From the NCBI RefSeq assembly GCF_007833275.1, contig NZ_CP042241.1, forward strand, positions 2,303,490 to 2,343,489: 40,000 nt of DNA, read 5' to 3'. The DNA is from Salarchaeum sp. JOR-1 (GTDB taxonomy: Archaea; Halobacteriota; Halobacteria; Halobacteriales; Halobacteriaceae). Below are positions 19,573-40,000 of the stretch, piece by piece. Position numbers and translations under genes: made by a program. Each line of letters begins with the position of its first letter. Within the stretch, counting starts at the first letter, position 1. The notes beneath the pieces were generated by a model. That model was not told the DNA's origin and did no database searches. It saw only the letters and a list, made by a program, of their open reading frames with translations.

Positions 19573-20507
19573 CTGCTCTATTGAAAATGGAAGACGGCGG
19601 CAGGATTACTCCGTAATGAGTTTGAGGAAATGAGGTCGAGACGGCGATTATGGGAGTCGCTTTACTCGACCTCGTTGAGACAGCACTACGTGTAGCTAAA
19701 CAAGCGTTGGGGAAACGAGCGGGCAAGCCCGACTCAGGCGGGCTTGCCCGCGAGGCCCACATCGTCGCTCACTGTATTCGCAAGGAGGAGGGCCACAGCT
19801 ACGTCGAACTCGTTGATCGGCTGAGTCTCATGCCGGCGGTCTGCGACCGCCTCGGCATTCACCCGGACGCGCCGCCTGATCCAACCACGTTCTACCACTC
19901 GTTCGACCGCTACGCGATGTACGTCTGGCGGGCGTTGCTGCGCATTTCCGCGCAGCAACACCCGCAGTCTGGTCACGTCGCACTGGACAGTACGTTCTTC
20001 GAACGGAAACAAGCCTCACAACACTATCTCCAGCGGTGTGGGCGAAGTGTCAAGACGATCAAAGCGACGACGCTGACCGATACAGAATCGTTGGCGGTGC
20101 TGGACGTCCACTGCTGTATCGAGCGTGAACACGATACGAAGGCTGGCCCGCGGGTCGTCCGCCGGAATGCGGACGACCTGCGGGCCGTGGCCGCCGACAA
20201 CGGCTTCCAAGACTGGCATACCGAATACGAGATCGCTGCACATGATATCGAGTACCTCGTTCACTACCGCGGTTCAACAGCGAAGGCAACCGCGAATAAC
20301 GCACTCATCCGAGCGAAGGGCTACACACAGCGATGGATGGCAGAAACGTCTTACTCGACGGTCAAGCGAACGCAGGACTCCGCCCTGCGTTCGCGGTTCT
20401 GGTACCGCCAGTTCCGTGAGATCGTTCTCCTGTTCGCGCTCAACAACCTCAAGAAGCTCGCCAAAACGCTATGATCCCGCTCCCGTACCGCATTTTCAAT
20501 AGAGCAG
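19573..20507 (+). mobile_element. IS5-family insertion sequence (935 bp)
   Basis: Perfect 17-bp terminal inverted repeats CTGCTCTATTGAAAATG lie at 19573-19589 and 20491-20507. They enclose a single DDE transposase ORF. No target-site duplication is evident. Confidence 0.8.
19650..20474 (+). CDS. IS5-family DDE transposase
   Basis: 274 aa. The segments ALDSTFFE...SQHY, AADNGFQDW and the C-terminal RWMAETSYSTVKR are typical of haloarchaeal IS5/ISH-type transposases. Confidence 0.88.
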   Translation: MGVALLDLVETALRVAKQALGKRAGKPDSGGLAREAHIVAHCIRKEEGHSYVELVDRLSLMPAVCDRLGIHPDAPPDPTTFYHSFDRYAMYVWRALLRISAQQHPQSGHVALDSTFFERKQASQHYLQRCGRSVKTIKATTLTDTESLAVLDVHCCIEREHDTKAGPRVVRRNADDLRAVAADNGFQDWHTEYEIAAHDIEYLVHYRGSTAKATANNALIRAKGYTQRWMAETSYSTVKRTQDSALRSRFWYRQFREIVLLFALNNLKKLAKTL

Positions 20508-20690
20508 CTCACTCCAGTTTGGAATGTCGAGGGCCTGAAGATAGGGTCCGCGAGAACCGACGAACGGGTCATCCGAATCCGTGGTCTGGAATCGCTGATG
20601 AACGTTCCGCGCGGCGTTACCGAGGTCGCCGAGCAGGTATGCCTCATAGGCGTCCTTGATCTGTTCTGCGCGGCGAGCAGGATCGTTCAT
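20496..20690 (-). pseudogene. 3'-disrupted last gene of the defence-like operon; the last 3 codons and the stop come from the IS
   Basis: The ATG overlaps the upstream stop in an ATGA. The reading frame runs into the IS5 right IR at 20507 (…NWSE|LLY*). The left flank of the IS does not continue a convincing ORF. Confidence 0.5.
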
Positions 20691-21463
20691 CGGGTATCGA
20701 TCTCCATTCGAATTGCCGATTCGAGGTCATCGACGCCTTTCATCTCCTTGATGACCTCGACAGAGAGTTCGTTCAGACGGACGCTACCCTCCTCCGCGAA
20801 GCGCTTGAGTATGTCCATGGCATCCTCGCTCAGTCCGTGTTCCTCCTGGAACGAATCCCATCCGTGCTTTCCGGCGTTCTGTTCCCACTTATCGGTCAAG
20901 TTGTCCCACCGGGACTCCAGAGACGATAGGGTTCTGTCCTCGTCCCAGATCGACTCGTTGAGGAACGCATCCATGTCCGATAACACCTCCTCGAAATCGC
21001 TCCCGGCACCCCCGATGATCTGATTGAGGTCACGGGCGGATTCGATTTCCCCTTCCCATTCCCGCTGGTGTTCTCGAATCGCGTCTATCGTCTCGCTCCG
21101 AGCATGACGAACTACCTCTCGAGCGTCCTCGACGCTCTGGAGGATTTCATTCGTCCGCCTGTCTTCGGCCGCACTGAGCACTTCCTCATCGGTGATGTCA
21201 GAGACCTCACGGACACGACGGACCGCCCTATCTACTTCGTCGAGGCGGTCGCCGCCGAAGACGCTCGTTAGCACTCCGTCGTAGAAAAGCAGGCCTTCGA
21301 CGGACGAGTCGAGACTGCTGAGTTCCCGCCCCAAATCCCCGATGTTGTCCTTCGCTCGCCGGATCTCCGCTTCCAGATCGTTGGCCCGTTCGGCACGATC
21401 CGCTTTCTCCCCGATCTCCTCGATTTTCCGCTCGAGTTCGTCCTCGAACTGAGATTCGCTCAT
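20687..21463 (-). CDS. Acidic coiled-coil protein, function unknown
   Basis: 258 aa with heptad-like E/R/L-rich segments. It overlaps the upstream ATPase gene as TAATG. Confidence 0.75.
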
Positions 21464-24400
21464 TACTGGACACCTCCGATAGTCTGCTGGACTGAGTCGC
21501 GCGCGTCACTGAACACCTCGAACTCTGTCGAGGACTCGACCTGATCTCGGAAGTCGCCGACTTCGCTACCTTCGGCGTCTTCCAACGCCTCGACCATCTC
21601 CGCAAAGACCTCGTACACTTCCCATGCAGCGCTCTCGTTCAGACTACGCTGATATTCGTGTAGAAGAGCGATTGACGAGATTGCGTCGTCCGTCTCCGCG
21701 TCTTCGATTTCATTGAGAGTTGACCGGAAATCTCCAAGACCGAGGTCACTCTCGGAATCGTTCAGTAACTGCCCGACGTCCCCCCATTTCTGACGGTGGG
21801 TGACGTTGAGCGGCCCCAGCGCGCTTTCCATTTCATCGTAAAGTTCAGCTAATTCCTCCTGAGTATGGCTCAGGTGGTGGAACCTCCGGTAATGGTCGGT
21901 TTCCTCCTGGAGATCTCCGACGTCCACTTGCTGTTCCACCTTCTCCAGTTCACCCGCTAGGTCGGAGAAGTCCTCTACAATCTTCCCGAAGCGCTTCTGA
22001 GAGTTGTTTCGAGTCGTCCCGATTCTGTAGGCGTCCGCTAAATCATCGACGCTCGTCGTACTTAGACCGCTCAGGTAACTGTCGAGATTCTCGGACACGC
22101 CGTTGATGGCTTCATTGAGGCGCTCGTAATCCACTACGTTCTCTTTCAAGAGGAAGAAGCCTCGTGCGAGGCTTCCGATGTCTCCCGTGTGATTGGAGGC
22201 CCGCTCGAAAGCGCCTTCGAGGCCCTGTGGGAGTTCTATCCCGACGTCGGATTGGTAGCTGAGGGGGGACGTCTCCTCCATCTGGTACCCCTCGAAGACC
22301 AGTTCGGGCGAAAGATCGGTTTTCCCCTTACCGATATTCATCACCAGGAAGTGAGCAAGGACGACGAACTCCTCTATAGTCATCTGCTCGGGGAGGTGGC
22401 CTTCGATGTCCCGCCGCATCCGACCCCGATACTCCACGACCTTGTCGGTCGCCCAACCCCGGAGTTTGTCGAAATTGGCGTCGTCTTCAAACGAGTCCGC
22501 GTACCCGTGGTGGAGCATCTGACGGTATAGTTCCTCATTTTCCGTACCGTGGGGTACTTCGAAACTCATCGACGCCGGCGAGTCGGCACCTCGTATAACC
22601 ACGGGCGGCTCTGATCCCCGGTCGAAATAGATCCCCGTGGTGTTCCTCGCCGTGGAGTTCTCGTTCGCAAGTCTTGTCGGGTCGTGCCACCTCTCCAGCG
22701 TGGCCACCACGCCGTCTCGGAACCGATCCGCGGATGCGTACTCCGTACCGTCCATCAGCCAACTCTGGAACTCCCGGTAGTCCTCTGGCGGAACTTCAAC
22801 TTCCGGTTCCGGACCCGGACGTCCTTCTTCATCATCTCCTTCATCCCCCTCTTCGTCCGTTTCTTCCTCCACTTCCTCCGATTCATCTTCCTCCGGTTCC
22901 CGGTCGGCTTCGTCTTCGTCATCGGTGTCGATGCGCTCGGAGGTCGGCTCAGCTCCCGGTTCGCGCTCGATGACAGTCACGTCCCCCGCTGCGAAGCTGG
23001 TGTCGAAGAAGACGTTCCCGTCTTTTTCCGCCGCCCCGTGCGTATCAACTCCAAACGCGTCGAACACCTCGGTCGGAAGCCAGAGCTGTCCCCGGTGTTT
23101 CAGTGCGTACCATTGAGTCAACTCGAGGCACGGCGTGGAGTGCTCGTTGATTCCGATGAGGTAAGGGCGTTGGCGGACGTAGGAATTGTTCTGTACTGCC
23201 TCGAACGGAGGCACGTCCGAGGTCAGGCATTCTGCGATGACGTGGACGAGTAAAATTCGCGGCGTCTGCTGGAGGTTGCCGTCCTGCACGAGGTTGGCAT
23301 AGACGTGTCGGATGAACGCTTCGTTGAACGGGTACACCGAATCGAACGCCTCTTCAGGCACCTCGGCACTCGCTTCGGAGTGTTCCTTGATCGCGTCGAG
23401 GTACGCCTTAACGAGGACGACGGGAGCGCTCTGCCCTTCGAGGAAGTAGGCCTGACCGTTGTCGTCGGTCATGCTGAGATACCCCTGAGTCCGCTGTTTC
23501 ATGTAGGTCAACGAGTCTTCGCTCGTCGATAGCGCGTCGTCGATATTCTCGCGCTCCCACCCCGTCGTCCATCCCATAATGACGTCGTAATGGCCGCTGG
23601 ACAACTCGAAGATATGGTCCAACAGATCGTCTTTGAGCACGCTGAACGTGGTCAGGTCCTCACAAATCAGAACCGGGCGCTTGCCCTCTTCGACGTAAGC
23701 TTCGGAGATGTCCTCTAACTCGCGCTTGAAGTCCTCGATGCCGATGTTCCGGGTCAGCAGATCGTGAACAGCGCGGCGAACTACGGGATAGACGTCGTCC
23801 TCTCGCTTGGTTTCCCCGAACGCGCTGAAACAGATACGTCCGTAGTCCTCGCGGGACAGCAGGTACTCCTTGATGTCCTGTTCTTGGCCTTCCTTCTCCA
23901 CGGACTCCTGATACTCTTCGATATTCTCGACGAGAATGGTTCTGAAATCCTCCGCATTCGAACGGGGTTCGAGGAACTCCTCCAAGTCGAAGCTTCTGAG
24001 GGCGCCCTGTCCTTTGTAGAACGTGTGGAGTCCCTGGATGATGAAGTCCGCGACGTCTTCCGGGTTCAGCGAAGAAATGTCGTTGACCTCTTCGTATTCT
24101 TTGTCGATGGGGTCGTGGAGGATCTCCAGAATCTCGTCTAGCCTGGTGTTGCTCCTGGAGATGTGGATTGCGACGTGTTCGTCGTCGGTCCCATCGCTCT
24201 CGCCGTAACCGTTGATCTCGTACTCGAGCCACTGGCAGAGATGGCTCTTCCCGCTCCCGACCTCACCCTTGACGATGAAGATGCGGTTGTCGTCTTCGAG
24301 GTCTGAATCCAGAACTGCGTCCCGGAACTGGGACTCCGTCACGAAGGCGTCGTCTCCGCTGTGGGGGCGCAGTATCTCCGCCCGTATCTTGTCTATCTCG

Positions 24401-24501
24401 ACGTGGGTCTCTCGGAAGACCTTGGGAGTCTTCTGCTGTGACTCCGGTTTGATGAAATCCTCTACGACATCTCGGTCCCAGTTGCGAACCATTTGAGTCA
24501 T
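21463..24501 (-). CDS. Large P-loop NTPase (1012 aa) with an internal poly-acidic linker
   Basis: Walker A is KGEVGSGKSH (about 24244-24267). Walker B-like is PVLICEDLT. A D/E-rich tract lies at about 22786-22938. Resemblance to BrxC/PglY- or PbeC-type defence ATPases is only a hypothesis. Confidence 0.85.
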   Translation of the reverse strand: MTQMVRNWDRDVVEDFIKPESQQKTPKVFRETHVEIDKIRAEILRPHSGDDAFVTESQFRDAVLDSDLEDDNRIFIVKGEVGSGKSHLCQWLEYEINGYGESDGTDDEHVAIHISRSNTRLDEILEILHDPIDKEYEEVNDISSLNPEDVADFIIQGLHTFYKGQGALRSFDLEEFLEPRSNAEDFRTILVENIEEYQESVEKEGQEQDIKEYLLSREDYGRICFSAFGETKREDDVYPVVRRAVHDLLTRNIGIEDFKRELEDISEAYVEEGKRPVLICEDLTTFSVLKDDLLDHIFELSSGHYDVIMGWTTGWERENIDDALSTSEDSLTYMKQRTQGYLSMTDDNGQAYFLEGQSAPVVLVKAYLDAIKEHSEASAEVPEEAFDSVYPFNEAFIRHVYANLVQDGNLQQTPRILLVHVIAECLTSDVPPFEAVQNNSYVRQRPYLIGINEHSTPCLELTQWYALKHRGQLWLPTEVFDAFGVDTHGAAEKDGNVFFDTSFAAGDVTVIEREPGAEPTSERIDTDDEDEADREPEEDESEEVEEETDEEGDEGDDEEGRPGPEPEVEVPPEDYREFQSWLMDGTEYASADRFRDGVVATLERWHDPTRLANENSTARNTTGIYFDRGSEPPVVIRGADSPASMSFEVPHGTENEELYRQMLHHGYADSFEDDANFDKLRGWATDKVVEYRGRMRRDIEGHLPEQMTIEEFVVLAHFLVMNIGKGKTDLSPELVFEGYQMEETSPLSYQSDVGIELPQGLEGAFERASNHTGDIGSLARGFFLLKENVVDYERLNEAINGVSENLDSYLSGLSTTSVDDLADAYRIGTTRNNSQKRFGKIVEDFSDLAGELEKVEQQVDVGDLQEETDHYRRFHHLSHTQEELAELYDEMESALGPLNVTHRQKWGDVGQLLNDSESDLGLGDFRSTLNEIEDAETDDAISSIALLHEYQRSLNESAAWEVYEVFAEMVEALEDAEGSEVGDFRDQVESSTEFEVFSDARDSVQQTIGGVQ

Positions 24502-25400
24502 GCTTCGTACCTCCGTTCCGACCTTTCGAGTGGGTGCCAGTACGAAGGTCTGTCTGGCGCAGCCTCGATCGTATAATCGGCTGGCGTCTGACTGTTATCG
24601 ATGCTCATCGGAAGGTCTACGACTTCACTCCGGTCGGACATCCCCGTGAGTGACAAGGCACCGTCCGCGACGAGGCTCTCTAGGACATCGGCAACCCCGA
24701 CGTGGACTGCCGGTTGTCCTCCAGTCCGACTGAAGACCGGGAAGAAATTCCCGTCGATCCACTCCAGAGCGGATAAAACGCTATCCCCGTTCGCCCGGTG
24801 ACGTTGATGGTGGAACAGCAGTTCGTGAAGCACTGCTCTGCTCGGGGACAGCAGTATCTCGTCGTGGTCAGAGGAGAACGAGAGACCTCCGAGAGGCGCG
24901 AGGAGATTCGCCCACATCAGTATTTTCTCCTCCCTCCACTCGAGGTCGTAGTCGGTCTCCCGATCGACCTCGATCACAAGGTCGTCCACGGAGACGCGAC
25001 GAACCCCGTAGTGCCCCACGTCTGCTGAGATCTCCTGAACGGCGACCTCGTAGATGGCGGCGAGGTGGGATTGCTTTCCTGTCTGCTGCCCTATGTGATA
25101 AAGGAGCCTCGGTTCGAACGTGAGTTCAAATTCTGGAAAGAGATCCCGGTTCATCGGGTTGAGGACATCTTGTCCCGTCTGTTCCACCATGTCCAATGTC
25201 CGCAAGAACCGAAGGCAGTTGTCGATGTGGTCTGTTTCGAGGCCCGACGAGCATGGACGGCCAAACCGGTTTTCGATCTGTGAAAGCGGAGTCATGGGGT
25301 CAATATCGGTATAAATTGACTTGAGTTCGGCCCCACGAACCGTCCCGTAGCCTGTCAGGAGCTTTTCCGGTTTCGACGTGTTGTATTCGTAGTCAGACAT
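24498..25400 (-). CDS. Hypothetical protein (300 aa), operon partner of the large NTPase
   Basis: Long ORF with haloarchaeal composition. It has an 8-nt overlap with the upstream gene and an ATGA overlap with the downstream gene. Confidence 0.75.
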   Translation of the reverse strand: MSDYEYNTSKPEKLLTGYGTVRGAELKSIYTDIDPMTPLSQIENRFGRPCSSGLETDHIDNCLRFLRTLDMVEQTGQDVLNPMNRDLFPEFELTFEPRLLYHIGQQTGKQSHLAAIYEVAVQEISADVGHYGVRRVSVDDLVIEVDRETDYDLEWREEKILMWANLLAPLGGLSFSSDHDEILLSPSRAVLHELLFHHQRHRANGDSVLSALEWIDGNFFPVFSRTGGQPAVHVGVADVLESLVADGALSLTGMSDRSEVVDLPMSIDNSQTPADYTIEAAPDRPSYWHPLERSERRYEA

Positions 25401-26235
25401 CGGCGTACAGTTCTGCGTTCTGTTGGCGTCGTTCGTCGAGACGATCCGTTCTAAACTGACACTGCGTGAGCATCGAATCCATGTTGTTCGCTATTTTCTG
25501 AACGTCTCCTCGTTCCGTCCACGAGCGTAACGCCTCCCGGATTCGTTCCGTGTACCTGTCGAGAATCTCCTGTAGATCGTGCTCGACGAAGTAATAGAGC
25601 GGGTCCCAGGCCGGACTGTTCGGAGGCGCCTTCTCGTAATCGAATAGTTCCGGAAGAGTGCTGGCTGGCGCACCAACGGCGTTGTGACAGTCCGAGATCT
25701 GGTGATAGTAGAGGTTTTTGGAGCCCCGGTTGGTCGAGACAGGTAACGCCGAATCTAGGTTGTCCCGGATATAGCTCGTTACCCGCGACTCGTAATCGAT
25801 CCCCTTGTTCGGCGTGAACTCATCCACGAAGGAACGCTCGGTCGTGTATGCCGGTGTCCGTGGTGCGTTGGTATCAGAGACGACGATGTAAATGTCGTCT
25901 TCTGATCGCTGCTTCAGGAGCGACCTAACGAGGTGTTGCTCGCCGTATTCGGTCAGCCCCTCTTGGCTCACGACGTGGACCAAGGGGAACTCTATCTCGT
26001 GAGGGTCTACATCCTCCGGACCGAAGTAGGTGTACGAAACTGGCTTGAAATCGTTGTCCCAGAGGTCTGTGTGTATGATCCTGTCGTACCCGTGCTCTAT
26101 CAGCAACGGGAGGCTGCGTAATTGAGCCCTCGGCTCGTGGGTGTGCTCACCGACGTATGGATCTCGAATGACGATGAGGTTCGCATACGTCTGGCCGGTC
26201 AGTGAGGAGAGCCCTGATTCCACGAGTTGTGACAA
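25393..26235 (-). CDS. Hypothetical protein (about 276-280 aa), first gene of the five-gene operon
   Basis: Long ORF. The only start candidates are TTG 26235 or GTG 26223. A TATA-like CATTTAT lies on the minus strand at about 26250. Confidence 0.7.
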   Translation of the reverse strand: MSQLVESGLSSLTGQTYANLIVIRDPYVGEHTHEPRAQLRSLPLLIEHGYDRIIHTDLWDNDFKPVSYTYFGPEDVDPHEIEFPLVHVVSQEGLTEYGEQHLVRSLLKQRSEDDIYIVVSDTNAPRTPAYTTERSFVDEFTPNKGIDYESRVTSYIRDNLDSALPVSTNRGSKNLYYHQISDCHNAVGAPASTLPELFDYEKAPPNSPAWDPLYYFVEHDLQEILDRYTERIREALRSWTERGDVQKIANNMDSMLTQCQFRTDRLDERRQQNAELYADV

Positions 26236-26279: not shown

Positions 26280-29200
26280 CTACTGCGAGCCGTGGTATTC
26301 AGGACGGGCGGGACAGTTCCAGCGTAAATCACACTCGGAACAGGTTCCCTCAGATGGCGCGTCCGCGGGAGATATGTCGAACCAATCGCCGCCTTCTCGA
26401 TCCTGTTCGATGTCATCTACGGTTTCTTCGAAAGCGGAGAGTGAACTCTCCACTGAGCCCTCTTGGAAATTGAGTTCGAAGACCGCATTGTCTCGATCGT
26501 CTTCTCCCAAAAAGTAGATGACTCCCCTCTCGGGATATTTGCCCTGCTGATAGCGGTATAGTTCTGCATAGGTGTTCAGCTGGGCTTGGTAGTCGTTCAG
26601 CTCCCGACTCCCGTCCGGCCGTTGTCCCGCCTTGTAGTCCCAGATCTCGTAACCGTCTACGTCGTCCCCCGCGAGAACGTCAACGACCCCTTCCAGAACG
26701 AAGTCATCCCGGTTGCTCTGAAGGCGGTGTTCGGTGTCAACGACTCGCGGGTAGAGCCGCTCGCCTTCCTTCCTGTTGAAGCGTTGGATGTACGAGAGCG
26801 CAGTGTCTTCGGCCTCTTGGCTCATCGGATAGATATTCCGGGCTTTCAGCGCTTCGGCCACCTCGCGGAAGTACGTGGCAATCTCGTCGTCGGTCGGGAT
26901 CGTGCCTTCGTCGATGTCCTCGATTTCACCCGCGTAGTGTCGGTGTGCTCTATCCAGCGTTTCGTGGACCACTCGTCCGAAGAAGAGCTGTGTGACGTGG
27001 TTGGGTGCGAAATCGAGTTCGTTGTAATACCCGTACTGGCGCTTACACCGGCGGTAGGCTAGGACGTCACCGGTGATGCTATACCTGCGTTTCAGCCCGA
27101 CATCGCTGTGGGGGCCGACACTTCCACCCACCAAGTTGAGGAAGTCGTCAGCGGATTCGATTTCTCTGGCCCCTGTGAACCAGTTCTCTGTCAGAGGGTC
27201 ACCTTGTTCGGTATAACCCAGGGAGAGATCAGTCGTCGCCCCCTCTTGGTCAAGTAGAAGTAGGTCGTCCTCCGCTCGGGAGTACGCCACGTAGAAGCGG
27301 CGGATCTCGTCTCGATTGGCTCTCTCGTCAGTAGTTCCAGTCGGGTGTATGTCGGCATACGGCTCTAATTGGTCCTCCAGCCAGTAGGTGCCGCCCGTCC
27401 AAGGTTCGCTGTCCAGGTCACTGACGAAGGTCACCGGGAATTCGAGGCCCTTGGCCTGGTGAACGGTCATCATCTGTACGAAGCCGTCCGGGATCTGGTC
27501 GTGGGGATCCTCTGGTTCGTCGAAATCGGACGCCTCCAGGTACCCGCAGAACACGTAGTAGAACGAGCCGAGGAATTGAGTTGATACGGACAGCGTTCTC
27601 GAAGACTTCTGCATGTGTTCCGGTCCGGTGATACTGGCGAAGGAGTCGAACAACTTGGAGAGGCGACCGAGCCTCTTCCCTCGCTCCGGGCGATCGGGAG
27701 TCTCGATCCATGTCTGGAATGGCTCGAACGAGAGGATCCGGTAGAGAAGTTCGAGGACGGTGTATCCCAGCGACTCGCTGTCACCTGCACGTCTGAGTTC
27801 GCGCCGTTTCCTGCGGACGTAACTGTCCAGCTCTGTCGCATCGTGGTCGTCAACGAACTCATCGAATTCCTCGTGCCAGTCCTCGATCTGTCCCTTAACT
27901 CGGCCCATAACGCGTGCCGCTTCCACTCCCTCCAGTTCGGGATCGAGACAGCGAATAACAGCGCTCAGCGCGAACTGGACTTCCTCCTGTTCCAGAAACG
28001 CCTTGTTTCGAGGATTGTGAACGGGAATATCCCGATCCCGGAGAGCTTCCGCGTATTTGCCGGCCCATCGGGAGGTCTCCTTCGTGCTCTTGAAAAGGAA
28101 CGCAACTTGGCTGTAATCCTCGATGTACCCTTCGTCGTGGAGCTCTTCGACTAATTCAGCCGCTGTTTCCGCGGGATGTTCGTCACTGTCACCGATCAGG
28201 AGCGACTTGACACTCTTCCGTTCCCCCGTCTCCTCCCGGCCCACGTCCATCGACTCCTTGTTCGGAGCGCGTGCCCCCTCTCGCTGCATGAGGGGGTACT
28301 CGTTCATATATCGGTTACACCAGTCCACGATATCTTCCGTAGAGCGGTAGTTCGTGTTCAACTGCTCCCGCTGAACGGATTCACCAAATCGCTCCTCAGC
28401 GCGCTCCGGGAACTGAATCAGACACTCCACGGTACCGCCCCTGAAGCGATACAGAGCCTGGTCATCGTCACCGACAACGGTTAGATTCGGACTATCGAGC
28501 TCCTCCGTCAATCGGAAGTAGAGCTCTTGCTGAAGCGGATTCGTGTCCTGGTACTCGTCAACGAGGATGTGTTCGAGAGGCGGGCGCTCGCGCTCCGGTT
28601 CCCCTTGAATGAACCGGCTGCCGGCCTCGCTTCCTATGAAGTCGATGAACCGCTCTAGAAGGCGGGCAAAGTCACATCGGTGATTCTCCTGTAGAGTCTC
28701 GCGGTATCGCTCAAGTCCCTCAGCGCAGACCCGCCACTCGGGTTCCGGGGCGCGACGCAGAGCCTCCGTGTCCGCCAAGTACTGGGACACCCGATTGAAT
28801 ATCTGAGAAGCACCATCGGTCGCCTGCCACTTGTTTGGGCCGTACTGAGGGCTGACGCCGCGCGGCAGCACCTTCTCGAAAAACTCCCACGCGTCTTCCG
28901 ATAGTTCGTCCGAAGAGACCGTCTCCCAGTTCTCTGCGTCGGCATTCCCTTGGAGAACGGACACGAAGTCACAGTTGTTGTACATGAAGAGCTGCTGACC
29001 GTCTTCGTCGAGGAGTTCTGTATTCGCGTAGGCGGGATACCGATACTCCTGCATTATATCGTTACAGAGGGAGTGAAGGGTCCCGATGTGGATTTCGTTG
29101 ACATCGACGTCGTCCTCGAATCCGAATCGGTTCAACCGGTCAACAATCCGCTCTTCCAGGTTCTGAGCGGCCTTCTCGGTGAACGTCGTGAGGAGGATAC

Positions 29201-31736: not shown

Positions 31737-31737
31737 G

Positions 31738-32511: not shown

Positions 32512-32972
32512 TACTGAGTAGCTCCCGCACAGAGTTCTGAGGTCTCTCTGACTCGAGCTGAGACATCCGATACCGAGTCCGGAAGTGCTGCGAGGAGTTT
32601 GCGCTCCAAGACGACACTCATCACCTCCGCCGTAGGTGGATAATCTAGTACGACGACCCCGTCACCTTCGCCGCTCTGCTCGAATGCGTCAATCAAGGGA
32701 TCGCCTTCCTCGAGGAGAAATCGATGATCCCACTCAGATATTATTGAAGTAATATCTCCTTTGTCCACTATCCACCCGTCTTCGGAGAGTGTCCCCGTGA
32801 CTTTGACTGATACCTGATAATTGTGACCGTGCGGACGACTGCACTTTCCGTCGTGATGTAGGATGCGATGCCCTGTGCTGATTCTAATCGGACGGTCCTC
32901 GCCCACGTATAGTGTTCGCTCACCTGCTTCGGCGAGTTGGGGCGAGGACTCCTGTTCTAAGGACATGGACAC
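32511..32972 (-). CDS. queD: 6-carboxy-5,6,7,8-tetrahydropterin synthase QueD
   Basis: The PTPS-fold motifs HRILHHDGKCSRPHGHNY are present. The start is GTG 32972 or ATG 32966. It overlaps queE as TAATG. Confidence 0.9.
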   Translation of the reverse strand: MSMSLEQESSPQLAEAGERTLYVGEDRPIRISTGHRILHHDGKCSRPHGHNYQVSVKVTGTLSEDGWIVDKGDITSIISEWDHRFLLEEGDPLIDAFEQSGEGDGVVVLDYPPTAEVMSVVLERKLLAALPDSVSDVSARVRETSELCAGATQ

Positions 32973-33090
32973 CTCTTCTTAGAGTATGCACTAAATATTA
33001 TCGGAGGAATACTGTGGTGGTTCTTCGTGGCGAGAGAAAGGGATATTCATATGGTGGAACGAAGTAAGGCTAAGACAGTGAATCTAATCT
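32973..33090. promoter_or_regulatory. 118-bp divergent promoter region between queD and the DpdA-like gene
   Basis: An AT-rich box ctaaatatta lies at 32991-33000, about 20-28 nt from the queD start. ggatattcatat lies at about 33040-33051, upstream of ATG 33091. Confidence 0.45.
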
Positions 33091-35994
33091 ATGAGGTTCT
33101 ACGTTCCTGAGTGGGATGATGCGGTCGATGCGAACTACGATTTCGAGCATGACGAACTCTCCACCCTCGACCGTCAGGAGCGCGAGCTCAACTACATCTG
33201 GGACATCTTCGACCGCGAGACAACGCCTATCGACGGAGTGCTTATTTCCCGTGAACAGGTAGAGGAGACTAAAAAGAAGGCGGAGCGCCTGGCTCAATAC
33301 GGCGTCTACGATGACCCCGTTCTCTCAGTTCCGGACTGGCTTCCGACTATCAGTGACTGCGGAGCTTGGGGGTACAAATCGCTCCCCTTCCCGCCCTATG
33401 GAAACGAGGAGATGCTCGATTTCTACGAGACTTTGGAGGTCTCCGTAGGGGTCACGATCGATCATCTCGTGCTCGGGTCTGGTAAGGACAAGGGACGCCT
33501 CTACCTCGATGAACGGGCCTTCGGAGACGGGTTCGAAGAGAGCGACATTCCCGACGCTCTCGAAGATGTCGTTGACCTGATGATCGACGAATGGCCTGAC
33601 GAGTGGCCTGAGTACGTTGACGAATACGAGCCCTCTATTCAAGCTGAAGATGGCTCAAGCGTGGAGCCCTTTAGTTCCGGCACTTTCCGTGGCGATATCG
33701 ATGCCGTTCTAACTGAGTTGGAACACGATCCGCGTGCCGTCTATCGGGCCGACGACAAAACGTTCCGCTACAATCTCACCCTCCGCAATGCCCGGGAAAT
33801 GTACGAGTTGTACCAGGCCGAGGATCGCCCCTTCCGTCTCATGGTGGCGATTCAAGGCTGGGATCCCGAATCATATGTCGAAGCCGCTGAGGAGGTACTC
33901 GACATCGGGTACGGCTACCTCGGCATCGGGGGCGTTGCGGGGAGTCCAGTCCACGAAGTGAGGAAGATCGTTAAGGACGTCGGGAAGACCATCAAGGCGT
34001 TCGAACGTGAGCACAACAGACGGGTCGATTCTCACGTTTTTGGTTTTGCGAAGTCTGAGGCGTTCGAAACCATCGGTCGTTCCGGAATGTCGAGTTTCGA
34101 CAGTGCGAGTATGTTGCGTTCAGCCTGGACTGGAGGCGAGAACTACCGCCTAAATAACGACAAACGATACGACGCTATTCGAGTACGGTATCCGTCCAAC
34201 GGTGACGACCTCCGAGAGGCCGTCGAAAAGTCACTCCGAGGTAGGGAGGTTCTCGTTTCCTTACGCGCCTATGACGCAGAGAACTCGATTGAGGAGGAAA
34301 TCTGGAACTGGCACCGGAAAGCTGAGGAGGTGCTTCCTGCGACCCGTGATTATCTGCGCGACCAACGGCACGACGAGCGGTATAACGCGTCCAGGTTACA
34401 GGACATCGAGACAGCATTCCGGGATGATTTCGAGTACGCCAGGGAGCTTCAAGCCTCCTTCAGCGACGACCTGCGAGGGCGGATCGTTAAACTCCTTCGT
34501 GAGGACACCGCCGAGGACCCGATACCCTTCGTGGAGTATGATGAACTGCTCACGGTAGCGGAAGAAGAATTTGAGAAATTCCCGCGGATGCCGGCGGCTT
34601 TCAATAGTCAGGAGCACCAGAACCCCTACGACCACGTCTGGACTGCCGTCCGGGACTATGCCGAGTGGATTGGAGACGATGGTCTATTGGAGGAGTACCG
34701 AGATACCCTGAGGGACCGACCGTGGGAGAAGTGCGAGTGTCCCATCTGCGAGACGAACGGGATCGAGGTCTGCATCTTCCGCGGCAACGACCGAAACCGG
34801 CGTCGCGGCTTCCACAATACCCGCCGCTTCTACGACGAGTTCGCCGCGGAACTCCCAAAACTGCTCGTCGCTGTCGAGGGAACTGCCAAACTGAGCCGCT
34901 TCGAGTCGATCGAAGAGTACCTCCGAAGCGAACACCCCGACTTCTGGGAGCGCGTACACGACCTGCCGGTCGCGGAGGTCGGCGTCATCGACGCGGGGGG
35001 AGTTCACGAATCGTGGTCTGGAACGCCGTCTACTGTCTCCTTCTCGCCAGATAGGGTGGAGGAGAATTTAGCGGCACAAACAGCACGCTATCAAAAGTTG
35101 TTCCTCCTCACGACCGGCGGGGAAGCGAGCGACGCCATTTCCGGAGCCGTTGAGCAGAGTGGTTGCGAACTCCACACGTTTAGTGAGTCCGAAGCCCTAC
35201 GAGAAGGGGCACTTGATGCGTGTGGTCGAAACTACGTCGCCGGTGATGATTTCGTTCCTCATCCTCCCGAGCTCGATGTCCGTGAGGGGTTGGATGTCCT
35301 CGTCATCGACCAGTGTTCCGGTTCCAAAGATATCCCAGAGGGGGCTCCCGTCTTCGATGCAGATGAGACGCTGGAATTTTCGAAGGAAGACCTGCTGAGT
35401 CGAGACAACGTTCCTGGAATTGCCGCGCGGGATCTCTATACTGGCCGACAACAGGGATTCGTGAAGGACGCTGCACGCCGGTTACGTAGTCAGGGTCACG
35501 ACGTTGAGCGATACTTCATAAGTGCTGGGTTCGGACTCGTGACCGAGGAGGAATTGCTCCCTCCCTACGAGGTGACGTTCAGTTCGATGAACGTCGGAGA
35601 AATAAGAGAGCGGTCTCGCCTCCTCGGAATCCAAGAGGACCTGAGAAAAGTATTGCACGAGACAGACTACGATGTCGTCTTCTTCACTCTCGGGAGCGAT
35701 TACTACACGAGCATCGATATTGACGAGATGGTTCAGCAAGTCCGTCCGGACCGTATCGGAGTGGTGTTCAACCGTGAACTAGTCGGTGATCAATTCGAGA
35801 ACATTGTGTCGGTCCCCGCCCGAACGGAAGATGCGAAGAACCACGGTACAATCGTCGTAGGGCTGAAAGGACTCTATATGAAGAATTTCGCCCAACGTCT
35901 TGAGAATGTAGATATGTTGGAACCGGATAATATCGAGTACCTTTGCCGGCACGTAGAAGACGGCCCGACTCAGGCGGCTTTCGAGAAGTTTTAG
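33091..35994 (+). CDS. DpdA-like (TGT-superfamily) transglycosylase fused to a C-terminal domain of about 330 aa of unknown function
   Basis: The N-terminal MRFYVPEWDDAVDANYDFEHD resembles the start of bacterial DpdA. TGT-fold hallmarks are present: LGIGGVAG, FGFAK...MSSFDSAS. The zinc motif is CECPICE...FHN. The C-terminal part has VLVIDQCSGSK, LYTGRQQ, ISAGFGLV and PPYEVTF. Confidence 0.8.
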   Translation: MRFYVPEWDDAVDANYDFEHDELSTLDRQERELNYIWDIFDRETTPIDGVLISREQVEETKKKAERLAQYGVYDDPVLSVPDWLPTISDCGAWGYKSLPFPPYGNEEMLDFYETLEVSVGVTIDHLVLGSGKDKGRLYLDERAFGDGFEESDIPDALEDVVDLMIDEWPDEWPEYVDEYEPSIQAEDGSSVEPFSSGTFRGDIDAVLTELEHDPRAVYRADDKTFRYNLTLRNAREMYELYQAEDRPFRLMVAIQGWDPESYVEAAEEVLDIGYGYLGIGGVAGSPVHEVRKIVKDVGKTIKAFEREHNRRVDSHVFGFAKSEAFETIGRSGMSSFDSASMLRSAWTGGENYRLNNDKRYDAIRVRYPSNGDDLREAVEKSLRGREVLVSLRAYDAENSIEEEIWNWHRKAEEVLPATRDYLRDQRHDERYNASRLQDIETAFRDDFEYARELQASFSDDLRGRIVKLLREDTAEDPIPFVEYDELLTVAEEEFEKFPRMPAAFNSQEHQNPYDHVWTAVRDYAEWIGDDGLLEEYRDTLRDRPWEKCECPICETNGIEVCIFRGNDRNRRRGFHNTRRFYDEFAAELPKLLVAVEGTAKLSRFESIEEYLRSEHPDFWERVHDLPVAEVGVIDAGGVHESWSGTPSTVSFSPDRVEENLAAQTARYQKLFLLTTGGEASDAISGAVEQSGCELHTFSESEALREGALDACGRNYVAGDDFVPHPPELDVREGLDVLVIDQCSGSKDIPEGAPVFDADETLEFSKEDLLSRDNVPGIAARDLYTGRQQGFVKDAARRLRSQGHDVERYFISAGFGLVTEEELLPPYEVTFSSMNVGEIRERSRLLGIQEDLRKVLHETDYDVVFFTLGSDYYTSIDIDEMVQQVRPDRIGVVFNRELVGDQFENIVSVPARTEDAKNHGTIVVGLKGLYMKNFAQRLENVDMLEPDNIEYLCRHVEDGPTQAAFEKF

Positions 35995-36070: not shown

Positions 36071-36081
36071 GAGCGGGAGGC

Positions 36082-37116
36082 ATGTTGTACAGACGACGGA
36101 AACTCGACCTCCCGCATGGGAAGGTGCAAACCCCAGTGCTATTCCCTGTCCGCAATATCGGGAAGCGGTCGAGTGACAATACGCCGGCGTACGTCGGCAC
36201 TATCCCGGACTTCTCGACAGCGATGATTAACGCTCGTTCGATCCGGAACCGGGAACCAATGTGGAACAGGCTAACCAACGGAGTCACGTTACGGGAAGAG
36301 ATGGATGTCCCAGAGGACACGATAGTCTTCGCCGATAGCGGGGGGTTCGATTTCACCGCCGAGGAGATCGACACTACCCCAGCAGAAACTCTCGATACCC
36401 AGGCCCAACTGGGAGCGGATATATACGGAACTGTCGATGTCCCCCTTTCGAGAGAGAACCGCGCAGCGGAAAATCAACGTCGTATCGACCAGAGCGTCGA
36501 ATACGCTCTCGAGGCAAGTGATCGCCACACGGGAGACGCGTTGCTCTTCGCAAGCGTGCACGGGTATGATCCCGAGACCATCCGGAACAGCATCCAGCAT
36601 CTAGAAAAGAATGGGGATTTCGATGGATACGCTCTCGGAAGTATGGTCCCCATCCGAACCGACTACAAAAAGGTAACCAAACTAGTACTTTCGGCGAGAC
36701 AGGCTACAGACAAGCACTTGCACGTGTATGGTCTCGGCGGCATCGTCTACCAACCGCTCCTGCTGTACCTCGGTGTCGATAGCTTCGATTCCTCGGCGTT
36801 CATCCGAAGTGCGGGCAATCGGAACTATTTGATTCCCGGATTCGGTGGCGAACCGCTACGGAACATTGAGTCGTTAGATAGACTCCCCTGCCCGTGCCCT
36901 GTGTGTGGACAGCGGGAACTAGACGAGATCCGTGAGGACCGGACCGCTCTCACCAAACACAACCTCTGGGCTCTGGCGATTGAACTCAGGCGATTCCGGT
37001 ACGTCGTCGAAGCGGGACGGGACGTTGAGGAGTATCTCGACCTCCGGTTCCAGGGGAACGAGGTGACGCGACGGGCATACGAAACCGCCAAGCAGCAAGT
37101 GCGGAGGCTCACATGA
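36082..37116 (+). CDS. Compact TGT-family transglycosylase (no PUA domain), DpdA-like
   Basis: 344 aa. Diagnostic segments are FADSGGFDF, YALGSMVP and VYGLGGIVYQPLLLYLGVDSFDSSAFIRSA. The zinc motif is CPCPVCG followed by ...KHN. Confidence 0.85.
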   Translation: MLYRRRKLDLPHGKVQTPVLFPVRNIGKRSSDNTPAYVGTIPDFSTAMINARSIRNREPMWNRLTNGVTLREEMDVPEDTIVFADSGGFDFTAEEIDTTPAETLDTQAQLGADIYGTVDVPLSRENRAAENQRRIDQSVEYALEASDRHTGDALLFASVHGYDPETIRNSIQHLEKNGDFDGYALGSMVPIRTDYKKVTKLVLSARQATDKHLHVYGLGGIVYQPLLLYLGVDSFDSSAFIRSAGNRNYLIPGFGGEPLRNIESLDRLPCPCPVCGQRELDEIREDRTALTKHNLWALAIELRRFRYVVEAGRDVEEYLDLRFQGNEVTRRAYETAKQQVRRLT

Positions 37117-38009
37117 CCGAAGAGAGGGCCACAATCCGACCAGTCAACCTAAGCCGCTTGGTGGAACTCACCCACGTATGCGAAGAGGGAACCAAATCCA
37201 CGGAGGAAGTCGAGGTTGCCCTCGACGTCAGCCACAAACGTGCGCGAGAGGCCATCCTCGAAGCAGAACGTGTCTCGCTATTGTCTGAGAAGGGTGACGA
37301 AGAGGAGTCCGTTTACGAGACCACTGATATTGGAGAGTCGTTTTTAGAGGCTGTCCGAGAGGAGGACTGGGAACGCGCTAGTTCCATCCTTGCCACCCAC
37401 AGTCCTCACTACAAGTCGTTCATCGAGACTTTAGACGAGGATGGGCAGGGCAGTTTAGATGCCCTATTGGAACGACTTGAAGATACCCAAGAGTTCACCC
37501 CGTACTCGTTCAACCAGACCGGGATTGAGGTCGTCGGTGACTGGGCGGAGCGTCTGGGACGCGTCCAACGCAACGCATTCTCCGGAAGTTACTACCTGAC
37601 GGACCGTTCTGAAGTGCCGCCGAACTTCCACTTCGTGTTGCTCGAAGTTTACGACGACCTCGAACAGACTGCGGGGGTGGACTTGCGTCAACGGTATCTG
37701 TCGATTCCGAGACTCCGCGAAGAAGTATGCGAACGGCTCGGTTGTACCCGCGATAACTTCGACGACGCCTTGCTCGCGGTATGTCAGCAAAACGTAGGTA
37801 AACTCGAACTCTCGGGCGCCCCTCTGGACTCAGCAGCAAAGGACGCCGCTCTCGGCATCAAGCAGATGAAACGGTCCGATGAAGACGGGCTCGTGACGAC
37901 ATCCCAGTCCACACAGCAGGTAATGAACGGAGTGGAACTGTACGACAAACAATACTACTATCTCGCGGTGTACGACCGCGACATCACGTTCGATACGGAG
38001 GCTTCCTAG
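37113..38009 (+). CDS. Hypothetical protein with a probable N-terminal winged helix
   Basis: 298 aa. It has an ATGA overlap with the TGT-like gene, and its stop abuts the next ATG. The N-terminal LSRLVELTHVCEEGTKSTEEVEVALDVSHKRAREAI is HTH-like. Confidence 0.7.
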   Translation: MTEERATIRPVNLSRLVELTHVCEEGTKSTEEVEVALDVSHKRAREAILEAERVSLLSEKGDEEESVYETTDIGESFLEAVREEDWERASSILATHSPHYKSFIETLDEDGQGSLDALLERLEDTQEFTPYSFNQTGIEVVGDWAERLGRVQRNAFSGSYYLTDRSEVPPNFHFVLLEVYDDLEQTAGVDLRQRYLSIPRLREEVCERLGCTRDNFDDALLAVCQQNVGKLELSGAPLDSAAKDAALGIKQMKRSDEDGLVTTSQSTQQVMNGVELYDKQYYYLAVYDRDITFDTEAS

Positions 38010-39164
38010 ATGTCCAACGCATTCACGATTAGTGACGAACAGCAAGACTACTCACAATACGACCTAAACGCGAATCCGTTCCCGTACAGCCCGGTTCCGA
38101 ACGAGAATCCCGAAATCTACTGCGGGCAGCAACACGTCTCCGACAAGATCAGTTCGACGGTATCATCGATGCTCGCCACTGGGAAGTCCAAGCACCTCGT
38201 GGTGACTGGGAAGTACGGAAACGGGAAGTCACACACGCTCAAATACACGCGCTCCTTGCTACGAGACCGGGAAGATGTCGTCGTCGGATACGTGGCGCAA
38301 CCCGGCGATGGATTCCTCGACATCTACCACGAGTTCGTGTACGATCTTGGATTCAACCGGATTCAGGAGTTAGCCTACGAGTACCTCGCCTCGGTTACCC
38401 GCGACGTCACGGACACCAATCCGATGGGTGCAGAATCGATGGAGTCACTCATCGACGAAGGAGATGTCCTGTTATCCGATATCGTACCAGAAGCCATCCG
38501 AAGACTCAGCGACGTCACCAAGTTCGCCGACTTCGCCAGGGCGATCGTCCATATGGTCTACGAGGACACGAACCTCTACGCCTGGCAGTGGCTGACTGCG
38601 GAGGGGATCCGGTACGAACAGCGTAAGGAGATGGAGATTCACAGCGCCCTCGACGACGACACGATGGGGGTTCGAGCGTTCACTGCCTTCAAGAACATGC
38701 TGTTGGACCTCGGGTACACCGGCGTGTTCGTGTTCGTAGACGAGTTCGAGAGCATCGCACGACTCACCCCGAAGAACGAACAGGCGACACTCAACAGCAT
38801 CCGGCACCTGATGGATCAGAACAGCTCAGGCCTTTGCATCTTGTTCGGTTGCGCTCCAGAAGTGTGGCAGGACGTTATGAGCGAATATCACGCTTTCAGC
38901 GAGCGAATTGGACAGGAGGTTTCGTTACGTCCGTTAACCAGCGAACATCTCTACGAACTGGTCGAGAACTACCTCGATAAGGAACGGCCATCAACTGTCG
39001 AGAGTCGCATCCGGCCATTCACCGAGGAGAGCCTCGATTTGATTCTCCAGCGGTCACAAGGAAACGTACGTCAAGTTCTGGCTCTATGTAGCCGTATATT
39101 GGACGATGCGGCAAACGAAAACCGTCAAGAAATCACTGTAGATTTCGTAGAAGAGGCGATTTAA
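38010..39164 (+). CDS. AAA+ ATPase (Orc/Cdc6-clade-like, without a winged-helix domain)
   Basis: Walker A is GKYGNGKSH. Walker B is VFVFVDEFES. The sensor-2-like segment is GNVRQVLALCSRILDDA. Confidence 0.8.
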   Translation: MSNAFTISDEQQDYSQYDLNANPFPYSPVPNENPEIYCGQQHVSDKISSTVSSMLATGKSKHLVVTGKYGNGKSHTLKYTRSLLRDREDVVVGYVAQPGDGFLDIYHEFVYDLGFNRIQELAYEYLASVTRDVTDTNPMGAESMESLIDEGDVLLSDIVPEAIRRLSDVTKFADFARAIVHMVYEDTNLYAWQWLTAEGIRYEQRKEMEIHSALDDDTMGVRAFTAFKNMLLDLGYTGVFVFVDEFESIARLTPKNEQATLNSIRHLMDQNSSGLCILFGCAPEVWQDVMSEYHAFSERIGQEVSLRPLTSEHLYELVENYLDKERPSTVESRIRPFTEESLDLILQRSQGNVRQVLALCSRILDDAANENRQEITVDFVEEAI

Positions 39165-39196
39165 GCGAGAAGACTCCAAGCAGATGGATGATCAAA

Positions 39197-40000
39197 TTAG
39201 GGGCGTTGATATAGGGTGAACTCCGTTGCGTAGCCCTGTTGTGCAGCTGCCGAAATAAGATCTGCACACTCGGGACAGAGGGAAAGATCGGTTTCGAGGT
39301 CTCGCTCGTCGATATGGACGACACGTTCACAGTCGTCATCGAGGAGTGCTCCACACTTTTGACAGCCCCGAGCGTCAATCCACTCATCGTAGAGATCCCT
39401 CGTTACCCCTTGTGCCATCACCAGTGACGAGAAGTAACGGGGAGGATACATCTGATCCCAATCAAGGACGTGATTCCGCGTGTCTCCCGGGACGCACTCA
39501 GGAGACTGCTCTTTGATAGTTCTCCGGTCGCTGAACCCAACAACTCGACCGACCCCCTCCTGACGCCGGAGATGGACCAAAAGGAACCAATCAGCCGTAG
39601 GGACGTCAGTTGAAACGACCAATCGCGGCCGGGAGTAATTCGTTGCCGTCGTCTTTGTGTCGATCGTGTGGGCGCCTATCTGATGATCGTACCCCGGATC
39701 ACCGTCCGCGTACACTTCCTCGTCCACTTCGAGGCCGAGAAGGCTCCCTGCCACGAGCTCGCCGGTGTGGCCGATTTTATGCGCTTCTGTCCGGTCACAC
39801 GTTCCGTACAGTACTCCACGACCATTCTTGGACTCGTCGCGTTGCTGTGCCTTGTTCTGGGACCTGTTGTCGATCCCCCGGAACGGAGCCTGTGAGACCG
39901 TTGCATCCAGGGGCATTTCAGGCAATTCATCGACGGGGACATCTGCCACCGATACTGGTGGTTCGGGAAGCCGCGAATTCGAGTCTGTCAGCGTATGCAT
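39197..40000 (-). CDS. Putative PD-(D/E)XK-fold nuclease with a C-terminal zinc ribbon; the 5' end may lie outside the window
   Basis: The pattern GHTGELVAG...GYDHQIGAHTIDTKTT fits an E...D...(D/E)xK arrangement. The C-terminal part has CQKCG...CPEC. The ORF reaches the window edge exactly at an ATG. Confidence 0.55.
   Translation of the reverse strand: MHTLTDSNSRLPEPPVSVADVPVDELPEMPLDATVSQAPFRGIDNRSQNKAQQRDESKNGRGVLYGTCDRTEAHKIGHTGELVAGSLLGLEVDEEVYADGDPGYDHQIGAHTIDTKTTATNYSRPRLVVSTDVPTADWFLLVHLRRQEGVGRVVGFSDRRTIKEQSPECVPGDTRNHVLDWDQMYPPRYFSSLVMAQGVTRDLYDEWIDARGCQKCGALLDDDCERVVHIDERDLETDLSLCPECADLISAAAQQGYATEFTLYQRP

Follow-up and report, generated by a model that had tools for sequence, protein, structure and literature searches.

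In bacterial Dpd systems (dpdA-K; Salmonella Montevideo), the transglycosylase DpdA requires the ATPase DpdB for preQ0 insertion, an ATP requirement has been established, and residues Asp95 and Asp256 of DpdA are essential (PMC10164549). A Dpd-like class found in halophilic archaea only, BRIGADE, was defined in a 2025 preprint (bioRxiv 10.1101/2025.09.15.676423). Here, we analyse a 40,000 nt stretch of Salarchaeum sp. JOR-1 (GCF_007833275.1, NZ_CP042241.1, positions 2,303,490-2,343,489 of the forward strand; referred to below as the window), of which positions 20496-40000 are probably a partly decayed haloarchaeal Dpd-type island of the BRIGADE class, combining 7-deazaguanine DNA modification with restriction (we put the probability of this reading at roughly 0.75).

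In BRIGADE systems, a 7-deazaguanine cluster is accompanied by DpdG and DpdHI/BrxC, by YprA-family helicases (one or two) and by a nuclease of the PLD or, at times, the PD-(D/E)xK type; the YprA helicase is the feature that defines the class. Type I systems often contain a large helicase-nuclease fusion, while Type II systems contain a CasRa/Csa3-like regulator and two near-identical YprA genes. The class is a computational prediction without experimental test, and the preprint text makes no mention of DpdA, DpdB, DpdC, a second transglycosylase of the TGT family or BrxD (10.1101/2025.09.15.676423). Hence, the system class is already known from prediction, and the island described here is a new member of it, damaged by an insertion sequence (IS). 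Least described in it is the modification module, with two TGT-family enzymes and no DpdB.

BREX-related capture (BRC) systems pair a TGT enzyme with a P-loop NTPase, a proposed replacement for DpdB (PMC12839542). Bacterial dpd islands were surveyed with dpdAB as a requirement (PMC12235509), so that DpdB-less variants with a second TGT would have been missed. In archaea, a DpdA homologue of Haloarcula vallismortis was named in 2019 as possible modifier of the DNA of halovirus HVTV-1 (PMC6884629).

Open reading frames (ORFs) of the window were scanned with Pfam, NCBIfam and PADLOC profiles, complemented by PDB, hhalign, AlphaFold and Foldseek comparisons. Six proteins, designated here by their length in residues (p258, p280, p300, p298, p93 and p267), were rescanned for weak hits in NCBIfam, PADLOC and Pfam at E-values up to 10, which brought no informative match. 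A previous interpretation of the same DNA from its letters and translated ORFs (the sequence-only reading) had proposed an archaeal modification-plus-restriction-like island with a role in DNA and an effector arm unlike dpdD-K.

Results

A DpdA-DpdC fusion and a second TGT-family enzyme

The gene at 33091..35994 (+) encodes a 967-aa protein in which DpdA is fused to a DpdC-like (DUF6884) domain. The protein scores 275 bits against the NCBIfam DpdA model NF041059 (curated equivalog cutoff 200) and is matched by the PADLOC models for DpdA (3e-73) and DpdC (1e-7), while its Pfam DUF6884 score of 29.9 bits lies just under the cutoff of 30. Alignment with the Salmonella DNA-guanine transglycosylase (PDB 7UI4; E 2e-40) places the catalytic Asp95 and Asp256 opposite D89 (DCGAW) and D337 (FDS), and the CxCxxC..H zinc site is likewise conserved. 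Judged by these profile and structure-based alignments, the 967-aa protein is a true DpdA. It bears two large insertions (~aa 133-228 and ~aa 388-533), and the DpdC/DUF6884-like part occupies ~aa 736-876 at the C-terminal end. On Natrialbaceae plasmids of Natronorubrum and Natronococcus (L013 18001-24792; L022 5403-12531), DpdA and DUF6884 are separate genes. Because the DUF6884 part is a gene of its own there, the window protein is considered a DpdA-DpdC fusion.

A second TGT-family enzyme (TGT2, 344 aa; Pfam TGT 7e-30) is encoded at 36082..37116 (+). TGT2 aligns to the catalytic domain of the Pyrococcus archaeosine TGT (1IQ8; E 2e-22) and keeps the DSGGF, FDS and CPCPVC..HN motifs, but is without the tRNA-binding C1/C2/PUA domains (344 aa vs 582 aa in 1IQ8). 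It reaches 141 bits with the arcTGT model TIGR00432, for which the cutoff is 350, and falls far under every equivalog cutoff. Hence, while ArcTGT/TgtA enzymes are full-length, possess C-terminal tRNA-binding domains and reach the equivalog score, TGT2 does none of these. Comparison of TGT2 to phage genomes gave a weak match to Sulfolobus spindle-shaped viruses only, and none to a halovirus. The two non-canonical TGT-family genes picked out by the sequence-only reading correspond to these two enzymes.

The 87-bp gap that separates dpdA-dpdC from the TGT2 gene is a cargo slot in relatives. In Haloarcula sinaiiensis (L020 11576-12472) it holds genes for an EVE-domain protein (a modified-base reader) and a winged helix-turn-helix (wHTH) protein, in Halomicrobium salinisoli (L021 8256-9654) a 'restriction endonuclease' and a wHTH protein, and in Halobaculum marinum (L010 20963-25814) ~5 kb of small ORFs.

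p298, a BrxD-like ATPase and the absence of DpdB

The two genes that follow had been described as encoding a wHTH protein and an ATPase, which agrees with what we find. The TGT2 gene overlaps that of p298 (298 aa; 37113..38009, +) by 4 nt, and the p298 stop abuts the start of the ATPase gene (38010..39164, +) with a 0-nt gap. The AlphaFold model of p298 (pLDDT, a prediction of the local distance difference test, 78.8; predicted template modelling score, pTM, 0.76) is a tandem winged-helix array, for which Foldseek returned the SelB C-terminus, RPC62 and the FokI recognition domain at E ~1e-3 with low TM-scores; the modelled fold suggests p298 is probably DNA-binding. The p298 family comprises 409 clusters at 90% identity; among the 120 listed, every source-named protein is haloarchaeal and none has a function name. 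The 384-aa protein is a BrxD-like P-loop ATPase, with 62.7 bits for Pfam BrxC_BrxD (cutoff 22.2; 4e-17) and NCBIfam and PADLOC BrxD matches at ~2e-12, under the equivalog cutoff.

No DpdB was detected in the window, neither by NCBIfam or PADLOC models nor by tblastn with Enterobacter DpdB at E<1. Similarly, DpdD, DpdE, DpdF and DpdK gave no significant hidden Markov model (HMM) or tblastn match in the window. TGT2, p298 and the BrxD-like ATPase would be the obvious candidates for the DNA recognition and ATP-dependent functions.

The preQ0 operon, its divergent spacer and two putative regulators

A preQ0 synthesis operon, queD-queE-folE-queC, occupies 30436..32972 on the minus strand. It consists of queD (32511-32972; Pfam PTPS 4e-19), queE (31738-32511; Radical_SAM 2e-18), folE (31128-31736; GTP_cyclohydroI 1e-54) and queC (30436-31131; QueC 4e-75). 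The pathway is complete, as the sequence-only reading had it. Of the 1-4 nt overlaps said to chain its genes, those at queD/queE (1 nt) and folE/queC (4 nt) are present, whereas the queE/folE junction is a 1-nt gap.

An AT-rich intergenic region of 118 bp (32973..33090; 41% GC) separates the preQ0 operon from the divergent TGT-family genes, in accordance with the earlier description. When six loci are aligned, blocks of the TTCATATG type and TA-rich blocks of this spacer are seen to be kept in five relatives from other genera. The spacer presumably holds two promoters.

Downstream of queC, a gene at 29866..30225 (-) encodes a 119-aa winged-helix protein (Pfam DUF7344 3e-19), which is 100% identical to its counterpart in Halosimplex aquaticum. 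DUF7344 genes are found near the module in many loci, and the protein is a probable transcription regulator. The adjacent gene (29531..29812, -) encodes p93, an acidic 93-aa protein without family match, homologues of which stand beside the module in six loci. The two genes (29531-30225) form a pair that accompanies the module in several genera, including Haloarcula vallismortis and Halobacterium salinarum, and may act as regulators of the module.

The modification module recurs in haloarchaeal loci with DpdA

Conservation of the neighbourhood across Halobacteria had been suggested as a check on the sequence-only reading. We examined 18 haloarchaeal loci with DpdA, of which seven lie on chromosomal contigs, nine on plasmids and two in further genomes. 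A four-gene module of DpdA(-DpdC), TGT2, p298 and BrxD-like ATPase was found in all of them (18/18), TGT2 being no exception. Given this recurrence in every DpdA-bearing locus examined, the genes of the cluster have not come together by chance. In most loci, the module is adjoined by preQ0 genes or, in Natrialbaceae, by a preQ0 transporter. The distribution of the module is patchy; it is often plasmid-borne, and in many genera helicase, nuclease and PLD genes are linked to it. Effector genes are less constant than the module: the four-gene effector operon followed by YprA is present in at least seven lineages, a UvrD-nuclease in four, and Halorientalis has a different helicase and nuclease set.

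Several individual loci are informative. On the Natrialbaceae plasmids mentioned above (L013, L022), a queuosine-precursor transporter takes the place of the queCDE/folE operon, which points to salvage of preQ0 instead of synthesis. The Haloarcula vallismortis locus (L024 1-12054) has the same layout as the window, with PLD, queC-folE-queE-queD, then DpdA-DpdC, TGT2, p298 and BrxD-like ATPase. On a Halobacterium contig (L026 8970-13275), TGT2, p298 and the BrxD-like ATPase occur together with DUF7344 and p93, and no DpdA or preQ0 genes lie within 9 kb. The p298 homologue of this contig is sequence-identical to the copy in the Halobacterium salinarum locus (L025), and the left flank contains Dnd-associated, AAA_15 and SNF2-type genes. 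The contig may reflect autonomy of the trio, or it may be a rearranged remnant.

An effector operon with links to DpdG and DpdH

Four overlapping genes on the minus strand make up the effector operon: p280 (25393..26235; 280 aa), p300 (24498..25400; 300 aa), a P-loop NTPase of 1012 aa (21463..24501) and p258 (20687..21463; 258 aa). In bacterial dpd clusters, the order of ~300-aa, ~1000-1100-aa and ~230-280-aa proteins corresponds to DpdG, DpdH and DpdI, and the same order is seen in the window.

The 1012-aa NTPase is DpdH-like (BrxC-like). It matches the NCBIfam DpdH model NF041065 at 1.9e-22 over its N-terminal region, under the curated cutoff, and eight PADLOC DpdH models. An alignment of haloarchaeal DpdH-like proteins matched bacterial DpdH in hhalign with 98.5% probability (E 3e-15, 455 columns), and the P-loop NTPase of the dpd cluster on the Paenibacillus sp. 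37 plasmid pART37 with 98.3%. The profile comparisons thus identify the NTPase as a DpdH homologue.

The relationship of p300 to DpdG could be traced through intermediates. Direct comparison gave no HMM match to DpdG, and hhalign probabilities of 7.8% (thin alignment) and 0.3% (41-sequence alignment). Second-tier relatives of p300 were collected by a profile search of 1.84 billion representatives, yielding an intermediate profile of 43 relatives. This profile matches the p300 family with 100%, the gene preceding the DpdH-like NTPase in the Paenibacillus cluster with 97.9%, and bacterial DpdG with 76% (E 2e-5, 225 columns). Ten of the second-tier relatives had no NCBIfam match. The AlphaFold model of p300 (pLDDT 82) shows a tandem winged-helix array, with SspB (6JUF) as top PDB match. 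We consider p300 a distant DpdG relative.

The outer genes of the operon are defined by position and by haloarchaeal homologues. p280 is 41-47% identical to the operon's first gene in four further loci of haloarchaea, one of them the BRIGADE exemplar described below; it had no match in the Pfam, NCBIfam and PADLOC scans, and hhalign gave no signal against anything. In four haloarchaeal loci, the gene that follows the DpdH-like one encodes a protein 26-28% identical to p258, an acidic helix-rich protein in the position of DpdI. p258 has no similarity to bacterial DpdI detectable by HMM scans or hhalign, and an exact-sequence look-up of it returned no match.

The gene at 26280..29426 (-) encodes a 1048-aa fusion of a superfamily 1 (SF1) UvrD-type helicase (Pfam UvrD-helicase 3e-52, UvrD_C 2e-20) and a C-terminal PD-(D/E)XK nuclease (PDDEXK_1 3e-20). 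It is 69% identical over its full length to a gene of Salinibaculum rarum and to one on the BRIGADE exemplar plasmid. The sequence-only reading had listed a helix-turn-helix gene, a helicase-nuclease and five translationally coupled genes in this region. The former two and four coupled genes stand; the fifth is a helicase stump. Regarding the island as a whole, profile and structure searches, which that reading had proposed for every ORF, identify DpdA, DpdC, DpdH and the BrxD-like ATPase, while p280, p258, p93 and p267 (see below) remain without family.

An insertion sequence truncates the YprA-type helicase

The fifth gene (20496..20690, -), whose start overlaps the p258 stop by 4 nt, is a stump of 64 codons from a YprA-like (DpdJ-family) DEAD-box helicase. 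Residues 1-61 are identical to a DEAD/Helicase_C protein of 1829 aa in H. aquaticum; beyond them the frame enters an IS. In H. aquaticum, whose chromosome is the closest relative of the window, the 258-aa gene is followed by the 1829-aa helicase gene with overlapping stop and start, and the chromosome is 96.7% identical to the window from 40000 to 20504 (19.5 kb), and no further. None of the remaining island genes is shortened, and their identity to the H. aquaticum counterparts is 96-100% (edge ORF 80%). Two close homologues of the N-terminus of the H. aquaticum helicase bear the JGI name 'helicase YprA'; a homologue search using its first 274 aa returned short fragments only. In every locus that can be read beyond the effector operon, a YprA-type helicase follows immediately.

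The IS spans 935 bp (19573..20507, +) and encodes a DDE transposase of 274 aa (19650-20474; Pfam DDE_Tnp_1 6e-13), which shares 60% identity with a transposase of the IS5 family from pHsi139 of Haloarcula sinaiiensis. It is delimited by imperfect 34-nt terminal inverted repeats at 19573-19606 and 20474-20507, and forms the left boundary of the island. The position previously taken as the left end, 20496, is the left coordinate of the stump ORF. Reading of the flanks revealed no target-site duplication, and no other helicase remnant is present anywhere in the window, none left of the IS. The lack of a target-site duplication and of a helicase fragment elsewhere in the window points to a deletion linked to the IS, and not to insertion alone.

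Comparison to BRIGADE and to bacterial systems

The Type II exemplar proteins WP_226013624.1 and WP_226013625.1 were located on the Halomicrobium salinisoli plasmid NZ_CP084465.1. The exemplar operon reads csa3, four genes of 288, 308, 1031 and 278 aa, YprA of 1843 aa, YprA of 1816 aa, and PLD of 659 aa. Identities to the exemplar operon are 45% for p280, 39% for p300, 41% for the DpdH-like NTPase and 28% for p258. The modification-module genes (DpdA/TGT2/p298/BrxD-like) are 57-74% identical to those of the exemplar plasmid. The helicase stump shares 58% identity with the first exemplar YprA, and the exemplar YprA helicases match the 61-codon stump only. No preQ0 synthesis genes were seen in the stretches of the exemplar plasmid examined.

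The window therefore shares with BRIGADE its haloarchaeal host (cf. the 19.5 kb identity to the H. aquaticum chromosome), a 7-deazaguanine gene cluster (queD, queE, folE, queC, DpdA and the DpdC-like domain), and DpdG and DpdHI/BrxC-like genes, the four operon genes being homologous to those of the exemplar. It differs in that the defining YprA helicase is cut to 61 codons, and in that a PLD gene is absent from the window; a PD-(D/E)XK domain is present in the operon neighbourhood as the C-terminus of the UvrD fusion. Of the subtype markers, the helicase-nuclease fusion is present and no Csa3/CasRa-like regulator is found in the region. The window is a BRIGADE-class member that has lost the class-defining gene.

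With the bacterial Dpd system (Thiaville 2016, PMC10164549), the island shares the DpdA catalytic residues and zinc site, the DpdC-like domain (fused here), the DpdH homologue, the G-H-I order of ~300/1000/250 aa, adjacent preQ0 genes and, in the intact relative H. aquaticum, a YprA/DpdJ-family helicase. In contrast to the bacterial system, it has no DpdB, DpdD, DpdE, DpdF or DpdK, its DpdA contains the two large insertions and the DpdC fusion, and it has further obligate partners in TGT2, the tandem-wHTH protein p298 and the BrxD-like ATPase. An SF1 UvrD-nuclease is present where bacteria have the SF2 helicases DpdE/F.

The clusters of Paenibacillus sp. 37 pART37 and Nostoc sp. NIES-3756 pNOS3756_2 also combine a long DpdA (689-714 aa) with a second short TGT, and no DpdB is annotated in the stretch examined. 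The former (L016 19158-40822) reads dpdA, a hypothetical gene, TGT, DpdG-like, DpdH-like NTPase, dpdJ, dpdK and later dpdF, and the latter (L015 9933-18450) dpdA, helicase, TGT, helicase. Unlike the island, both are bacterial. Identity to TGT2 is 29-32% in Nostoc and below detection in Paenibacillus, and no p298 or BrxD-like homologue was identified in either.

The BrxD-like and BrxC-like (DpdH) ATPases are shared with BREX/BRC systems (PMC12839542), as is, for BRC, the combination of a TGT with a P-loop NTPase. Profile scans of the island (20.5-40 kb) detected no PglZ, PglX, BrxL, HerA/FtsK or GNAT. BREX membership was rejected on account of this similarity being limited to the two ATPases, with no PglZ/PglX in 20.5-40 kb. 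A secondary-metabolite cluster was also considered and rejected.

Genomic context

At the right edge, a convergent ORF (39197..40000, -) encodes p267, a 267-aa protein with a Cys-rich, zinc-ribbon-like C-terminal tail. It stands beside the module only in H. aquaticum (80% identity), where the counterpart is annotated as a shorter 239-aa product, and in Salinibaculum (78%). Profile and PDB searches gave no significant family or PDB match for p267, and weak zinc-ribbon matches only. The ORF had been taken for a PD-(D/E)XK nuclease; it is indeed there and kept in two relatives, but the nuclease assignment finds no profile or PDB support. Its membership in the system is doubtful.

The GC content of the island is 53-61%. 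The left flank is made up of the IS, a glycan-related stretch of 45-47% GC, and genes at 62-68% GC. A TnpB/IS605 OrfB gene lies at 1321-2640, and two orc1/cdc6 genes at 5516-6736 and 7034-7987. The second of these encodes 317 aa with lid and winged-helix domains only, and looks truncated at the N-terminus. At 12806-19260, a type I phosphodiesterase gene stands beside a PAPS-reductase-domain gene, and the 45-47% GC stretch that comes next includes a gene for a polysaccharide flippase; together they may represent a glycan-modification island with no relation to the deazaguanine island. The gene content of the left half fits an accessory, rearrangement-prone region. The island lies in an IS-bearing region of lower GC; the sequence-only reading had described the region as IS-rich and accessory.

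Discussion

We propose the following mechanism for the island. QueD, QueE, FolE and QueC would convert GTP to preQ0, which the DpdA part of the 967-aa protein would exchange for guanine in DNA by the TGT double-displacement mechanism. The fused DpdC-like domain could then convert DNA-bound preQ0 to the amide ADG. With DpdB absent, TGT2, p298 and the BrxD-like ATPase may provide target recognition, an ATP-dependent step and possibly a second base exchange. The restriction arm would be formed by the operon of p280, DpdG-like protein, DpdH and p258, normally followed by YprA/DpdJ-type helicases, one or two in number, and a PLD nuclease, with the UvrD and PD-(D/E)XK helicase-nuclease encoded alongside. 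The 935-bp IS appears to have removed the helicase beyond 61 codons and everything past it. This loss probably impairs or abolishes restriction, and probably leaves modification untouched.

Some observations weigh against this account. To our knowledge, 7-deazaguanine in haloarchaeal cellular DNA has not yet been demonstrated by experiment. The link between p300 and DpdG is indirect, at 76% probability; the similarity to DpdH is limited to the N-terminal half of the NTPase and scores under the curated cutoff; and the DpdI (p258) and p280 assignments are by position only. The roles of TGT2, p298 and the BrxD-like ATPase are ones that we infer, and the Halobacterium contig with this trio and no DpdA nearby means that the trio may not simply assist DpdA. 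Furthermore, the UvrD-nuclease might suffice without YprA, or another part of the genome could hold a copy of the helicase.

The last point could be taken further, with the island still a fully working restriction-modification system in which the UvrD-nuclease and DpdG-like/DpdH proteins suffice or a second helicase copy compensates. The full length of all other genes and their 96-100% identity to H. aquaticum would agree with this, as would the co-occurrence of the helicase-nuclease with the module in four lineages and the occasional replacement of PLD by PD-(D/E)xK nucleases (10.1101/2025.09.15.676423). We nevertheless regard it as unlikely, given that every locus readable past the effector operon has a YprA-type helicase directly next, that the class is defined by this helicase, and that the window contains no remnant of it elsewhere. 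A new archaeal system with an effector arm unrelated to dpdD-K, as proposed by the sequence-only reading, appears very improbable. Homologues of DpdB, DpdD, DpdE, DpdF and DpdK were indeed not found in the window, an SF1 UvrD-nuclease fusion is foreign to the canonical bacterial Dpd cluster, and p280, p258 and p93 match no known family. However, the DpdH homology, the DpdG link and the YprA/DpdJ-family stump contradict such a view, and both the effector-operon genes and the helicase-nuclease have homologues in the BRIGADE exemplar. The broader proposal of an archaeal modification-plus-restriction-like island is upheld by the combination of preQ0 genes, a true DpdA-family transglycosylase and restriction-type genes.

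A cluster that serves tRNA archaeosine or another non-DNA use of preQ0, with its defence neighbours incidental, is hardly credible. Haloarchaea do make archaeosine (PMC5699537), and TGT2 is most similar to an archaeal tRNA-guanine transglycosylase. In contrast, the large protein is DpdA by the curated cutoff and matches a solved DNA-guanine transglycosylase, which likewise supports the DNA role originally suggested. TGT2 has no tRNA-binding C-terminal domains, ArcS is not present, and the module is patchy, often on plasmids and linked to helicase, nuclease or PLD genes in many genera. The evidence speaks much more strongly for a function in DNA than for one in tRNA.

Within the Dpd-type reading, it is conceivable, albeit doubtful, that TGT2, p298 and the BrxD-like ATPase work together as a self-contained machine for DNA base exchange, driven by ATP and with no need of DpdB, either substituting for DpdB or writing a second 7-deazaguanine mark or motif. 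If the second mark is true, this would be a two-writer epigenetic system in archaea. More generally, the two-TGT, DpdB-less module could show how DNA transglycosylation is powered without a ParB-like ATPase. Comparison of the window with H. aquaticum is a natural one, without and with the YprA helicase, and could show what the helicase contributes. Haloarcula vallismortis is the host of HVTV-1, whose DNA contains 30% dPreQ1 and which has no DpdA of its own; as it carries the same module, it would allow a direct test of the 2019 suggestion of a host DpdA. Should the chemistry be borne out, 7-deazaguanine marks, to date demonstrated in bacteria and viruses only, would be present on chromosomes and plasmids of haloarchaea.

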